Shown here in pieces: positions 1 to 36,003 of a stretch of DNA of 64,000 nucleotides; within the stretch, counting starts at the first letter, position 1; every line of letters starts with the position of its first letter. The DNA is taken from NCBI GenBank assembly GCA_012646185.1, contig GCA_012646185.1_4706.1; one strand, given 5' to 3'. This DNA is from a phage. The notes beneath the pieces were generated by a model that worked only from the letters and a program-made list of their open reading frames with translations, made no database searches and was not told where the DNA came from. Both the position numbers and the translations under genes were made by a program.

Positions 1-3000
1 CCAGAACCAATTATAACAGAATAACTAGCAGCTGTTACCGTTATAACCGAAATTACTGTTCCGCCAGCTCCTCCCCCAGCGCCAAAAAACGTTTCGCTGT
101 TGGAATAAGCCTGACAGCCACCGCCGCCACCGCCGCCACCGGTTATCGTTACTCTAATCCGTTTTGTTCCTTGTGTTGGGGTGTACGTCCCTGACGATGT
201 GAAAACACGCATATTCAGTAAACGCCCGACATATCCGCTAGAATCGGCTAAACCAAGATCTTTAGCTGCTAACGTGATATTAGCTGTACCATCAAACGGT
301 TTACCGTTAATCGTGCGCGCGGTCTGCAACTTCGTCGCCGTTGCTGCGTTTCCTGATGTGTTCTGGTTTCCCGCGGCGTTAACACCTGGCAGATTGATGT
401 TCGCACTACCATCAAAAGAAACCCCACCAATGGTGCGGGCTGTTTGCAGTTTTGTCGCTGTGGCGGCATTCCCCGTGGTATTTTGGTTTCCTGCGGTGTT
501 AACACCCGGCAGACTGATATTAGCCGTACCATCGAACGCAACACCGCCGATCGTCCTTGCTGTTTGCAGTTTTGTCGCCGTGGCGGCATTACCGGTTGTG
601 CCTTGGTTACCGGTGGTGTTTACCCCAGGTAGGTTGATATTTGCCGTACCGTCAAATGAAACGCCGCCTATCGTTCTTGCCGTTTGCAACTTCGTTGCGG
701 ATGCCGCATTCCCTGTGGTGTTTTGGTTACCTGTTGTATTCACACCTGGGATACTATCCTTAGATGTGTAGATCTGTGCCCATTCCGACCATTTCGCATC
801 GGTTGTATCGCGACGTGAACGTAAATAAGCCGGAGCGTGTGCGCCAGAGGTACCTGACCAACCAACGAGGATTTCACCTTCACCTACCGATGAAGCACCT
901 TTGAGGTGAATAACGTTACCATAGGCGGTTGGGTAGCCGTTACTGTACGCTTCATACATCTGGATACCGGTATTACTACCTTGGGTCGCATTAGCTAACG
1001 CGGTAACACGACCTTTGGAGGCGAGAGCGGTAATACTGAAGCTAATGTCCTTAGTACCGTCAAAGGCGACCCCATTAATCTTCCGTGCTGTTTGGAGTTT
1101 CGTGGCGGTAGCCGCATTACCAGAGGTACTCTGATTACCTGCTTTGTTCACGCCAGGCAAATCAATGTTGGCTGTTCCATCAAAGGACACGCCTCCTATG
1201 GTTCTCGCTGTCTGAAGTTTTGTTGCTGAGCCAGCGTTTCCGGAAGTACCTTGATTACCTGCCGCGTTGACACCTGGTAGGTTAATGCTAGCAGAGCCAT
1301 CAAAAGAAACTCCGCCGATCGTGATCGGTGTTTTCAATTTCGTGGCTGTCGCGGCGTTACCCGTCGTGTTCTGGTTGCCTGTCGCATTAACGCCAGGTAA
1401 TGCGACATCCGCTGTTCCGTCAAAGGCAACGCCACCGATTCTACGTGCAGTTTGTAGTTTGGTTGCACTAGCAGCGTTACCGCTGGTATTCTGGGTGCCA
1501 GCTTTGTTAACACCGGGGAGATCGATGTTAGCAGAACCATCGAAGCTGACGCCACCTATCGTTCTTGCGGTAGCGAGTTTAGCTGCTGTGGCTGCATTAT
1601 TACCCACTTTCAGCCAATCATCCCATGGACCATCCTGGCCGTTCCATGATGCCGTTAAACTACGTACGTAAATATTGCCGGTACGTACAGTGTAACGTTG
1701 CGTTCCACCGAATTGTCCAGCAGGGAGCACTTCAAGGTAACCTGCGGCATTTGCTTCAGGGAAATTGTGGGCGACGTCCGCGTTCGTTGATACTGGTTTA
1801 GACCAAATACCCACAGACGCTTCAACCGGACCGTAGGTATTCAGATTTGCGTCGGTGGGGAGCTGTCCTCGAAAACGCTGGAATAGTGTTGCCGATAACC
1901 GCAACAATGCTTGCATGCTTTCAATGCTAGATTGCTGCAGTAACGTCCGTGCTGTCGGTGTGATCGTCGCTAAATCAACCTTATTCGTATCGGTAAAATA
2001 CGGGAATTTGTTTGCTGATGTTGCTAAACCTGAAAAGGCGGTCAGTAATGCGTTAAGGGGCTGCTTCCCAGCTAACGCATTTGTTACCGTCGTTGCGAAA
2101 TTAGGATCACTTCCTATAGCTCGAGCCAGTTTATTAAGTGTATTTAGCGTCGCTGGAGACGAGTCGATCAACGCCGTGATCGCACGCATCACGAATTCCG
2201 TGTTGGCAATCTGTCGACTGCTGTCGTTCACTACAGCCGTAGGCGCTGCTGGGATACCGGTGAACACAGGGCTATTAAGATCTGCCTTGAGCGCGATGAG
2301 ACGTTTAAGTGCGTCGACATCGACTTTCAGGTTTTCCCATCCGATGAGAGAACCACCGCTGCTGGCATGGTAACGGTTGTACCAGAAGTCACCGTTAACG
2401 CCTAAAAAGAATATTCCCTTCTCTTCGTTTTGCGGGCCGGAACTATTTCGTGACGAGCTGATGTAATTGATTTCAATAAGACCAGTAAACGTCACTCCTG
2501 GGATTATTTTGTTGTCTCCAGCTGACTGTGATACCTGGTAAATCCCCGGGGTTGCGGCTTTAACCCATGTTAAGAATTCTGTTACTCCAGCGGTACCGCT
2601 AAAATTCTTAACGTCGGTAAGTATTGCCCCATAACCGAACATACCGGGTAGAGCCACTCGTCCGCCGGTACGGTCACGAATATCTGTCGCAACAACAGGC
2701 AATTGTTTACGAACGGCATTAACCGCCTTAGGTGTGGCCGATTTTGTCTCGTCGTCGCTATCGGTTTCATTACTTAGAATAGTTAAACCGCGTGTAGCAG
2801 TAGTTGCATCAGGAAGAAATGCGTTATCCAACACCTTAAGCTGTACTGCACTCGTATTACTAACAACGACATGCACCTGACAGTTAAGAACGCTGGTTGC
2901 ACCTTCGGCAGGCGTAGGCTTATATCTTTCTGGCGCACTGCAGACGGCAATCAGAACATCTTGGTCATCGTACAGACCGATCTCACGTACCCAGAACCCA

Positions 3001-15625: not shown

Positions 15626-15703
15626 GATTACTGTCCTTTTGAAATATGTTTAGATAAGGAGGATTTACCGGGTATTAAAAAGTTATTTGGTGTGTAATGT
15701 TTT

Positions 15704-16303
15704 TTACTTAGGTTCCAGTGTTGGTCCGAACAACCAGAATGTCAGACGCTGGTAAACCTGTTCGATGACTGCGGCTTCTGTTTGCTCTTCTAGTGCTTTC
15801 CCTTTCTTATGTTGTATTTCTGGCGGGATGTCGCCGTTGTAAACATACCCTGCTGAGAAGTCCCACGCCAGCCGTTTACCGAAAGTAGGTAAGAACACCT
15901 CTTCGAATCGGAACGCTTTCGAATTCCAATGCAACAGCTGATCGGATTCAACATGTAAAGCTTTATTACGTTTGCTTGGCATGTTTCCGAAGTACTGAAC
16001 GATAGCTGATTTCATAACCTGATCTGCGAAGTCTTTGGCTTCGGCCTCATCGAGGGGAGGCAGACGATGTGATAGATTCAGCTTGCGTTGTTCAACATCG
16101 ATCTTACGCATCGCTTTAATCAAATCACTAGGAACGATTTTACCCTTATGGCCTTCCTGTCGGTGTATGAAACACCCCTGGAATAACACGCAAAGTTCTT
16201 GAGGCGCGCTACTTTCCATTCGTCCGTAAGCAACGATCACCGAACGACGACGATCAATAACTTCGCGGATAAACCGCGGCTCAGTAATACTCACCACTGT
16301 CAT
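15704..16303 (-). CDS. hypothetical protein (199 aa)
   Basis: ORF, co-oriented. Confidence 0.55.
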   Translation of the reverse strand: MTVVSITEPRFIREVIDRRRSVIVAYGRMESSAPQELCVLFQGCFIHRQEGHKGKIVPSDLIKAMRKIDVEQRKLNLSHRLPPLDEAEAKDFADQVMKSAIVQYFGNMPSKRNKALHVESDQLLHWNSKAFRFEEVFLPTFGKRLAWDFSAGYVYNGDIPPEIQHKKGKALEEQTEAAVIEQVYQRLTFWLFGPTLEPK

Positions 16304-33600: not shown

Positions 33601-33900
33601 TTACTGAAACAAGACATTAAATTCGACAAGATACCCATCGGATCTATCGCCCCGATAACGGTTGCAGAAAACACCGAATTTCATCAAGAACTCACATAGC
33701 TCTTCGGCTTTGTATAACGGAATACGATTTTCGTCGAGCAGAGGGCAACTATGGCTAACCCGCTCCGACGAATCAACGCAACACAAATAAAGAAGGAACC
33801 GAACAATAGCTCGGTTCTTAGTAAAGCTCTCGAATTCACCCACAGTTCTGAACTCATCGAGGAGCTTTGTCGTTTTCTTCAATCGTTCACGATCGAGCAT
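33601..33900 (-). CDS. hypothetical protein (99 aa)
   Basis: ORF with TGAGGT before ATG at 33900. Confidence 0.45.
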   Translation of the reverse strand: MLDRERLKKTTKLLDEFRTVGEFESFTKNRAIVRFLLYLCCVDSSERVSHSCPLLDENRIPLYKAEELCEFLMKFGVFCNRYRGDRSDGYLVEFNVLFQ

Positions 33901-33963: not shown

Positions 33964-34278
33964 TTATTCTGTTTTCGGTGTTGAACCGTTCTTCTTGAAG
34001 TCGGATTCGTATTTCACGTTAGAATCGAGAACCTCACGAACGGTTTTATCTGTACAACCACGGGCGACGTATGCATTAAGATCGTCGCGTAATTTACGCA
34101 TCGTTGTTTTATCCGCATCAGAAACATCTGACTTGGTAAGACGGAATGCAATTGCATCACGAACTTTATTCAGCGTTGCTGGATTATTACGCTGCTCTGC
34201 AAATACCGCTTTGATGAATGTACCGCTATCTTTCGAAGCGATGGCTGCATCAAGAATTTCAATATGCTTTTCAGACAT
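33964..34278 (-). CDS. hypothetical protein (104 aa)
   Basis: ORF, co-oriented. Confidence 0.45.
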   Translation of the reverse strand: MSEKHIEILDAAIASKDSGTFIKAVFAEQRNNPATLNKVRDAIAFRLTKSDVSDADKTTMRKLRDDLNAYVARGCTDKTVREVLDSNVKYESDFKKNGSTPKTE

Positions 34279-34329: not shown

Positions 34330-35655
34330 TCACTTCAAAAGCTTAGACACCGCCATGCTTCGCGCCATCGCAACGTCATACGCATCCATGATCGCGTCAC
34401 CGATAGCGGTATGACGGATCAACGGAATACCCATATCTGGATACTCTTTGGTGCCTAAGATGGATACCGGTTTGTCTTGATACGCGGCAACCATCGAACG
34501 AATATCCTGAACCTGGTTATAACGGCAGATTGGTTTGAAGCCCGCTTTACGGAACCAATGCTCTAATTGCGGCCAATCTGTTTCACCACGAGCAAGATAA
34601 TAGAAGGTATCTTTACCGTAGTATTCGGTCATTTTGTCACGAATACTGTTGACGAACGCATTTACTTCGGCGATGGCTTCTTTATAACCCATTGCCTTAC
34701 AATGTTGAAAACAATAGTCGCGCGCTTCCTTTGGTGCTTTGGTTTGCCACCATTCTACTGTTGATTCACTGATACGACCACCGTCAGCGATTTGACCATG
34801 AACGTCAGGGAAGATATCTATACGCGGACCGTTAACAATGGATTCTGGATTAGCCAGATCGAAGAACACGATACCGATTTCCAGCAATACTCCATTCTTT
34901 TCCAGACTAAGGTTTTCAACATCTAAACAAAATGCGGGCTTCTCTACCGCTAACGGCTCGAACGAATGGTTGCTGGTATCCGATTCGGTTTTAAGTTCGA
35001 CGACAGCCGGATCGGTATCCGTAGGTTTCAGTTCTACTACAGCATCATCGAGTCCCGATAACGAAAAATAGTCTTCGAAGAAATCGGATATCGTCATACC
35101 ATGCAAATTGATATCGCAATCTTCCAACCATTGCTTCAACTGGTGCTCACCGGCATGAATCGCTAAACGGCACGGTCCGGAACGATCATCTAGCGCTGCA
35201 TCGATCCAGAAGAAAGCGCGTATAAGTAAGTAAGGATTATACTCCGCGATGATTTCTTGGCTAGCCGAGAAATCGTACACCATTAGTTGTATTATTCCCT
35301 TACGCGTGTTATACGGATCAACTTTCAATCGACGCACTATTTCTTCTACGAATTCCAACGCGCGCGTGTACGAGGTGGACCCACCTTGTTCATACGAACA
35401 TATACCCGTCAAAAGTTCCTTATAGGACGCATATGGAACCATAGGCGATAATTTGTACGACAGTTCAGTATTGTAATTATCGCATAATTTCTTCGGGGCG
35501 ATAGCATCCTGTATCGCTGTAATAAACGCCGGTCCATCAATATCAAACAACCATCCTTGACGCCGGTATGCAGTGTACCGTAATAACGCACCGATAACTG
35601 CCTGGGGCGGTGTATATTCTTTCCCGTTAATTTCAAACAGTAGTTTGCTCATCAT
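34330..35655 (-). CDS. protein with C-terminal DEDDh 3'-5' exonuclease domain (DnaQ/RNase T-like) and unknown N-terminal domain
   Basis: Exo I-like FCLDVENLSL, central YYLARGETDW, Exo III-like HTAIGDAIMDAYDV in the C-terminal ~190 aa. Confidence 0.6.
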   Translation of the reverse strand: MMSKLLFEINGKEYTPPQAVIGALLRYTAYRRQGWLFDIDGPAFITAIQDAIAPKKLCDNYNTELSYKLSPMVPYASYKELLTGICSYEQGGSTSYTRALEFVEEIVRRLKVDPYNTRKGIIQLMVYDFSASQEIIAEYNPYLLIRAFFWIDAALDDRSGPCRLAIHAGEHQLKQWLEDCDINLHGMTISDFFEDYFSLSGLDDAVVELKPTDTDPAVVELKTESDTSNHSFEPLAVEKPAFCLDVENLSLEKNGVLLEIGIVFFDLANPESIVNGPRIDIFPDVHGQIADGGRISESTVEWWQTKAPKEARDYCFQHCKAMGYKEAIAEVNAFVNSIRDKMTEYYGKDTFYYLARGETDWPQLEHWFRKAGFKPICRYNQVQDIRSMVAAYQDKPVSILGTKEYPDMGIPLIRHTAIGDAIMDAYDVAMARSMAVSKLLK

Positions 35656-35667
35656 AACACCTTTTCA

Positions 35668-36003
35668 TTATTCTGGTTTATCTGTTGTCAGGCCGAGTCC
35701 GGTCAATATCACGTAATCATACCACGCTTTTACTTCTGCTTTCGCTTCATCTAAACTGAATGCGTTGATGTGCGGAAACTCATCGTTGACTGGGAAAGGT
35801 AAATCGCAGTCGTAGCTTGTATCGTCTTTCCAACCTTTCCATTCGATCGTTAGGGAACCAAAAACGGTCTCAGCGACAACATGATTATAGCGACAGTTTT
35901 CACACGGTGCGTGCTCTTCCGACCACACAAGCTCATGCTGCGCTAAAAGTTGTTGTACAACCGATAATGGTTGCTCTTCATTAAGTTCGATACTGTCTAT
36001 CAT
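35668..36003 (-). CDS. hypothetical protein (111 aa)
   Basis: ORF, co-oriented. Confidence 0.45.
   Translation of the reverse strand: MIDSIELNEEQPLSVVQQLLAQHELVWSEEHAPCENCRYNHVVAETVFGSLTIEWKGWKDDTSYDCDLPFPVNDEFPHINAFSLDEAKAEVKAWYDYVILTGLGLTTDKPE

Follow-up and report, generated by a model that had tools for sequence, protein, structure and literature searches.

The window analysed here, 64,000 nucleotides of phage DNA (contig GCA_012646185.1_4706.1 of assembly GCA_012646185.1), carries on the minus strand, at positions 34330..35655, a gene in which a conserved DEDDh exonuclease domain of the DexA family is joined to a folded orphan N-terminal domain (N-domain) that close relatives exchange at the domain boundary. 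The best reading of the product, which we favour somewhat on balance, is a DexA-like exonuclease equipped with an exchangeable N-terminal protein-binding adaptor. The architecture, catalytic residues, orphan status, predicted fold, dimorphism, breakpoints and selection regime are each supported directly. The gene is a single uninterrupted open reading frame (ORF) of 441 aa that fills the interval exactly, and it is the orthologue of gp147 (YP_009820832) of Escherichia phage vB_EcoM_Goslar (NC_048170), a nucleus-forming jumbo phage with which the window is collinear at a DNA identity of 94-96% over about 62 kb. Translation probably begins at the second ATG, at 35652, giving a product of 440 aa, because the spacing to the ribosome-binding site is better there and the homologues begin with MSKLL; the Shine-Dalgarno-like AAAGGTG (35658..35664, minus strand) lies 5 nt ahead of the second ATG and 2 nt ahead of the first.

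The enzyme half is already known through the annotation of Goslar, in which gp147 (YP_009820832.1, HOV27_gp147; 409 aa) is called '3'-5' exoribonuclease' by RefSeq and hypothetical by GenBank; the RefSeq name is a transfer from the Pfam family name only. In the window protein this domain covers aa 237-441 (34330..34947, minus strand). The family PF16473 (Rv2179c-like 3'-5' exoribonuclease domain) matches aa 243-425 with E=1.4e-16 and a score of 61.2 bits, where the cut-off is 27, and 167 of its 177 profile positions (4-170) are aligned; PHROG 255, 'exonuclease', matches with E=1.2e-27. A single-sequence search of the PDB gave only a marginal match to T4 DexA (E=0.097). The window domain and its Goslar counterpart were combined with a metagenomic homologue of 48% identity and with the homologues of four distant phages (Salmonella SA002, Stenotrophomonas Moby, Xanthomonas X1 and Hafnia Enc34; 24-27% identity) in a seven-sequence profile. 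This reached DexA (8KEL) with E=8.9e-26; its positions 3-201 lie against DexA residues 3-208, with Exo I, II and III in register.

The catalytic residues of DexA are D7, E9, D119, H186 and D191 (PMC12153337). They align with D245 and E247 in the Exo I motif D245-V-E247 (34915..34923, minus strand), with the Exo II aspartate D360 in GETDWP (34576..34578, minus strand), and with H415 and D420 in the Exo III motif H415-TAIG-D420, whose H-x4-D form defines the DEDDh subtype (34396..34413, minus strand). All five are invariant in the alignment of the seven divergent phage homologues. A search with Goslar gp147 returned the representatives of 24 clusters; they come from Goslar-like contigs, of which some reach 217-250 kb, and these close homologues keep the five residues as well, with the exception of one that is apparently frameshifted (P0014). 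By its sequence the C-terminal module is thus a true DexA-family DEDDh exonuclease domain, with predicted activity. An earlier reading of the DNA made from its letters alone, the sequence-only reading, had proposed a DEDDh domain with Exo I (DVE) and Exo III-like (H-x4-D) motifs fused to an N-terminal part of no recognised motif, and had staked the proposal on the catalytic acidic residues surviving a proper alignment. The fusion is borne out, both motifs are present, the acidic residues all stand in register with DexA, and a domain search places the C-terminal part in PF16473 and the N-terminal part in no family. The domain sizes needed correction, since the exonuclease domain has about 205 aa instead of about 190 and the N-terminal part about 236 instead of about 250, of which about 200-212 are folded and the rest is an acidic linker.

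By homology, the exonuclease module would remove nucleotides from free 3' ends, in a two-metal catalysis in which D245, E247, D360 and D420 take part and H415 is the general base. It would most probably attack DNA 3' ends or oligonucleotides, like DexA, whose roles are the scavenging of host DNA and resection in recombination. DexA (8KEL/8KEN) belongs to the same Pfam family, but it is a single domain of 227 aa without an N-terminal extension. Goslar-like phages are not known to use DNA with 5-hydroxymethylcytosine (5hmC). The extra loops of DexA are tied to its dimer-tetramer switch and to 5hmC recognition (PMC12153337). Goslar is reported to degrade host DNA, at least partially (PMC10541120). 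That the protein is instead an RNA-directed 3'-5' exoribonuclease, which would trim or degrade RNA of the host or the phage in the infected cell's cytoplasm while the N-domain tethers it to an RNA-handling partner, we regard as unlikely. The idea draws on the Pfam description of Rv2179c of Mycobacterium tuberculosis, the founding member of PF16473, as an exoribonuclease, and on the RefSeq name of gp147, which was taken over from that family; mRNA export and turnover are moreover central problems for nucleus-forming phages (PMC11077065). The seven-sequence profile, however, reaches DexA, a DNA exonuclease, and returned no Rv2179c entry from the PDB at E<=0.01, and the phage homologues are annotated as dexA-like. 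Rv2179c, a bacterial protein of one domain for which activity on RNA is reported, shares PF16473 with the window domain; the profile search did not reach it at that threshold, and so it is more distant than DexA.

Proofreading, a role that the sequence-only reading had considered, is unsupported by the data. The family is the stand-alone DexA/Rv2179c one, a Pfam scan at E<=1 found no DnaQ/RNase_T family, and among the nine neighbouring ORFs none is a polymerase and none has a Pfam match. DnaQ, the epsilon subunit of DNA polymerase III, has the DEDDh catalytic constellation in common with the window protein and is the second-closest structural homologue of DexA (PMC12153337); the window protein differs from it in being neither fused nor adjacent to a polymerase.

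The N-domain is folded and mostly alpha-helical in the AlphaFold2 model (aa 1 to about 212; 35020..35655, minus strand). The predicted local distance difference test score (pLDDT) is mostly 80-95 over aa 1-212, so that the structure prediction suggested by the sequence-only reading gave a confident domain, and a model of this domain alone has a predicted template modelling score (pTM) of 0.77. In the predicted fold, about ten helices and two short strands come after a beta-hairpin (aa 7-14). An acidic linker (aa ~213-236; 34948..35019, minus strand), identified from a pLDDT below 50, composition and alignment, separates it from the enzyme, and the model shows residues 213-240 as disordered. 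The net charge is about -7 over the linker region aa 201-236, and that of the folded core is -7 in the window and -12 in Goslar. The acidic charge argues for the binding of protein rather than nucleic acid, and it is unlikely that the N-domain binds nucleic acid directly. The class-A linker, the form carried by the window, contains an imperfect tandem duplication, AVVELKPTDTD/AVVELKTESDT (~34975..35040, minus strand; aa ~206-227), and the homologue P0021 misses seven residues immediately before it.

The N-domain gave no Pfam match with the threshold relaxed to E<=10, and at E<=0.1 neither NCBIfam nor the defence-system models of PADLOC matched any part of the protein, PADLOC likewise giving no match for Goslar gp147. 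A word-indexed search of 5.8e9 proteins recovered only the N-domain's own family, as did HMMER run in full over 1.84e9 representatives; IMG/VR and GTDB genomes, scanned with the N-domain alignment, gave no match, and the JGI metagenomes added just three further contigs with the N-domain, of jumbo-phage size (209-249 kb). No paralogue was found by hmmsearch in 134 kb of the window and Goslar, and no structural relative was found in the PDB. Among the viral predicted structures of BFVD the sole credible match is the N-domain of Goslar gp147 (probability 0.99, 17% identity). As judged from these sequence searches, the N-domain is an orphan confined to Goslar-like phages. It is an addition specific to them, because a distant homologue (P0004) has the exonuclease domain without it and the ORF upstream of P0004 is unrelated. 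The possibility that this upstream ORF was a separate N-domain gene, split from the enzyme, was rejected on the same ground. Downstream of P0004, on locus L017 (1..7730), lie an AcrVA2-like (PF26125) gene and then a gene for thymidylate synthase into which a GIY-YIG/I-TevI-like homing endonuclease is inserted, an arrangement that recalls T4, where DexA assists intron homing. In Stenotrophomonas phage Moby (L014) and Xanthomonas phage X1 (L015), the dexA homologue is found directly downstream of a very large ADP-ribosyltransferase gene.

The N-domain exists in two classes, neither of them rare: clustering at 90% identity gives about 10 clusters for one and about 14 for the other. Class A, to which the window belongs, comprises proteins of 433-441 aa and class B, that of Goslar, proteins of 409 aa. 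The window protein and Goslar gp147 are positional orthologues with the same two-domain architecture and junction (VEKPAFCLDVEN), and they are 53% identical overall; this figure combines exonuclease domains that are about 92-94% identical with N-domains (236 aa here, 204 aa in Goslar) that are barely alignable at about 21-23% identity and have no detectable DNA similarity. The linker is much shorter in class B, and the junction with the enzyme is conserved as (A/T)-V-E|K. Between the classes the N-domains are 21% identical and the exonuclease domains 92%, compared with 74% (minimum 56%) and 95% within class A and 87% and 95% within class B. The two classes are nevertheless homologous, because hhalign aligns them collinearly (residues 5-197 of A with 3-187 of B, P=6e-5), in agreement with the BFVD match, and twelve positions are invariant in both: L5, I9, K12, E13, G41, Y78, R109, T117, K119, Q123, P141 and F148. 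This dimorphic, exchangeable orphan domain is new, being undescribed in the literature searched.

The comparison of the DNA with nine homologous loci and three metagenomic loci locates the exchange precisely. The match of about 95% to Goslar breaks at 34949 and returns at 35664, enclosing 714 bp here and 650 bp in Goslar, and apart from the tail-fibre repeats it is the only in-gene replacement in the window relative to Goslar, the two other breaks being clean gene-sized indels. In all four class-B loci the similarity to the window is lost at 34949-34951 and regained at 35664-35675. The downstream boundary (34949..34951) thus falls at codon ~236, just before VEKPAF, and the upstream one (35664..35675) covers the spacer between the genes together with the gp148 orthologue's stop codon. 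A class-A sub-allele reuses the same domain boundary: in L004 the flanks are 96% identical to the window, the DNA identity falls to 53-59% around 35400-35530, and it returns abruptly to 95% at 34952. Flank and N-domain similarity are discordant across 13 loci, and the class that a phage carries disagrees with the phylogeny of the flanks. L001, L010 and L011 have an upstream flank of about 96% identity and a class-B N-domain without detectable DNA similarity, L004 combines a 96% flank with a class-A N-domain at 73%, and L007 and L021 combine flanks of only about 81% with class-A N-domains at 83-84%. In L019 (OGZS01000006.1, a 238-kb metagenomic contig), which is a close relative of the window, the N-domain DNA is 98.4% identical and the upstream flank only 93.8%, a hint of further local exchange.

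The selection regime was estimated by the Nei-Gojobori method (NG86) for seven class-A and four class-B loci, with sliding windows of 30 codons. In class A the rates of nonsynonymous (dN) and synonymous (dS) substitution are 0.20 and 0.59-0.61 for the N-domain (dN/dS 0.33-0.34), and 0.027 and 0.44-0.48 for the exonuclease domain (dN/dS 0.06). The corresponding values in class B are 0.097 and 0.33 for the N-domain (dN/dS 0.29), and 0.043 and 0.31 for the exonuclease domain (dN/dS 0.14); nine neighbouring genes lie at dN/dS 0.07-0.22. The protein sequence of the N-domain changes about seven times faster than that of the exonuclease domain, and the class-A ratio rises to 0.62 at codons 46-75 and, at its highest, to 0.76-0.97 in the linker. 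These ratios indicate a functional, constrained domain under purifying selection. The sequence-only reading had suggested a phage-specific targeting domain; the N-domain is indeed specific to Goslar-like phages, folded and under purifying selection, while targeting stands as a reasonable reading only.

A serious rival holds that the mosaicism is ordinary and that the N-domain is an accessory domain under weak constraint, perhaps a scaffold for the oligomerisation or solubility of a nucleotide-salvage nuclease. Its classes would stem from past recombination with a diverged relative, and its breakpoints would fall at the boundary since only in-frame, domain-respecting recombinants survive. Added oligomerisation would be plausible for an enzyme whose DexA relative depends on its quaternary state (PMC12153337), dN/dS is below 1 everywhere, whole-gene indels occur elsewhere in the window, and the neighbours are themselves patchily divergent between loci (58-99% for the 99-aa ORF and 75-98% for gp144 and gp152). 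However, a fall from 92% to 21% identity within one ORF far exceeds that of any neighbour, for which the minimum is 58%, and the N-domain is the only replaced segment in 62 kb, the tail fibre aside. Two common classes, the recurrence of sub-allele swaps at the same boundary within class A, and the lack of any donor lineage outside the Goslar-like phages among 15 billion proteins speak against it too, and we give this explanation a rather low probability.

For the preferred reading, an exonuclease with an exchangeable adaptor, we infer the substrate, the adaptor role and an arms-race interpretation. The N-domain, on its flexible acidic linker, would be a protein-binding adaptor that determines the place at which the nuclease works, or the partner on which it works. 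Among phages that are otherwise about 95% identical, two ancient classes of it and several sub-alleles circulate and are swapped at the domain boundary. The exchange of the N-domain classes exactly at that boundary suggests that the partner of the adaptor is variable, encoded by the host or by a competitor, or that the N-domain is pressed to escape recognition. Replacement hot spots of this kind usually lie where a phage protein faces its host or a competitor, and deep dimorphism, recurrent boundary exchange and a raised protein rate form the pattern of such interfaces.

Several points weigh against this interpretation. Phage mosaicism together with weak constraint could give the same pattern without an arms race, and the sliding windows give no evidence of positive selection, with none above 1 and a maximum of 0.97 in the linker. 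The distant homologue P0004 lacks the N-domain, which is therefore not needed for catalysis. The substrate, as far as the sequence goes, may be DNA or RNA. The exonuclease domain is poorly modelled by AlphaFold2 (pLDDT below 50), its model being unusable because the alignment is too invariant, and the prediction is uninformative on contacts between the domains. The literature searched gave no biochemical or genetic data for the window protein or gp147, and gp147 is not mentioned in it, the CRISPRi-ART and nucleus-interactome papers included. Finally, the class-B homologue P0014 (360 aa; longest contig of its cluster 247 kb) runs out of register in the exonuclease domain after about aa 300 and ends early, which may be a frameshift, a pseudogene or an assembly error; if it is real, the gene is dispensable in that phage.

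The occurrence of the orthologue in virion preparations bears on where such an enzyme might act. In purified Goslar virions analysed by liquid chromatography-tandem mass spectrometry, YP_009820832.1 was detected with 22 peptides and 51% coverage (Table S4, bioRxiv 10.64898/2026.04.21.720040), and its abundance was estimated at 39, 59 and 92 copies per virion, a level that resembles that of the PF12699 internal proteins gp54-57 and exceeds that of the packaged virion RNA polymerase subunits, at 8-21 copies (bioRxiv 10.64898/2026.04.21.720040). Among the accessible peptide entries, those from the N-domain (DQIDPITPEEIK and ...GNK) and those from the exonuclease domain (DIFPDVHGQIADGGR, EAIAEVNEFINTIR) have similar intensities (bioRxiv 10.64898/2026.04.21.720040). 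On the same accessible entries, the idea that the N-domain is a packaging propeptide that is discarded was rejected, since its peptides in the virion sample match the exonuclease peptides in intensity.

The protein could accordingly be packaged in the virion and injected as an effector, so that its nuclease is active from the very first minutes after infection, inside or close to the early-infection vesicle, with the N-domain serving packaging or facing the host. Besides the copy number and the recovery of both domains, the position of the gene 51 bp upstream of that for the capsid 'latch' protein gp146, on the same strand, is in favour, as is the presence of the neighbouring products gp157, gp158 and gp161-163 in the virion list. 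The same table, however, holds chimallin (~126 copies), PhuZ (~170), ChmC (~78) and thymidylate synthase (~20), and the accompanying peptide list contains many E. coli proteins (bioRxiv 10.64898/2026.04.21.720040). Contamination is plausible with these proteins in the preparation, and with contaminants at similar levels packaging of gp147 is therefore only possible. The authors of the preprint make no comment on gp147 (bioRxiv 10.64898/2026.04.21.720040), the measured protein is the class-B orthologue and not the window protein, and the Pfam scan of the window protein found neither PF12699 nor another internal-protein signature. Altogether we consider an injected effector possible but doubtful.

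The hypervariable internal proteins of T4, such as IPI*, are virion-injected anti-defence proteins. By analogy, the window protein may share with them an association with the virion and a strong variation between close relatives; unlike them, it carries a conserved enzyme domain, and there is no relation in sequence or fold. A bolder version, to which we assign quite a small probability, makes the N-domain the variable 'specificity head' of a virion-delivered nuclease effector, docking on a polymorphic component of host defence or of a competing phage, or diversifying to escape sensing, with its alleles held by frequency-dependent selection. If true, this would be an enzyme with a swappable targeting module, a combination undescribed for early infection by chimalliviruses.

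The exonuclease half is routine and already annotated; what deserves attention is a folded orphan that behaves as a swappable cassette, and that is a testable candidate for a determinant of host interaction or counter-defence in nucleus-forming jumbo phages. If the virion association of gp147 is true, the protein would be among the poorly understood ones delivered at the start of infection. If the N-domain is only a weakly constrained scaffold, the case reduces to ordinary mosaicism at a domain boundary.

Some features of the surroundings were also recorded. The ORF of 104 aa at 33964..34278 (minus strand), which follows downstream of the exonuclease gene at a distance of 51 bp, is orthologous to Goslar gp146; this is the 'latch' protein of the capsid pentons, present in 55 copies in the cryo-electron microscopy model (bioRxiv 10.64898/2026.04.21.720040). 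The ORF is 92-98% identical across the loci, with dN/dS 0.10. The 99-aa ORF at 33601..33900 (minus strand) corresponds to Goslar 134413..134640, has a gene call in L004, L006, L008 and L011 and a dN/dS of 0.15; Goslar RefSeq places gp145 on the opposite strand at this place, which is probably a strand mis-annotation. The window orthologues of gp157, gp158 and gp161-163 lie at roughly 40.7-47 kb, and in the Goslar virion table the metallophosphoesterase gp157 has about 75 copies and gp158 about 926 (bioRxiv 10.64898/2026.04.21.720040). Relative to Goslar, the window lacks 386 bp of the gp108 region (15657..15704) and the 711-bp gp120 (21444). Its other strongly divergent segment is the tail-fibre gene (1..1990; Goslar gp090 orthologue), 63-89% identical to Goslar and with cross-matching internal repeats. 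Members of the P0013 cluster (228 sequences) and P0022 carry the NCBI labels E. coli or Salmonella enterica; their source is draft bacterial assemblies in which Goslar-like contigs of 45-245 kb occur, and 5,426 complete E. coli genomes gave no match.

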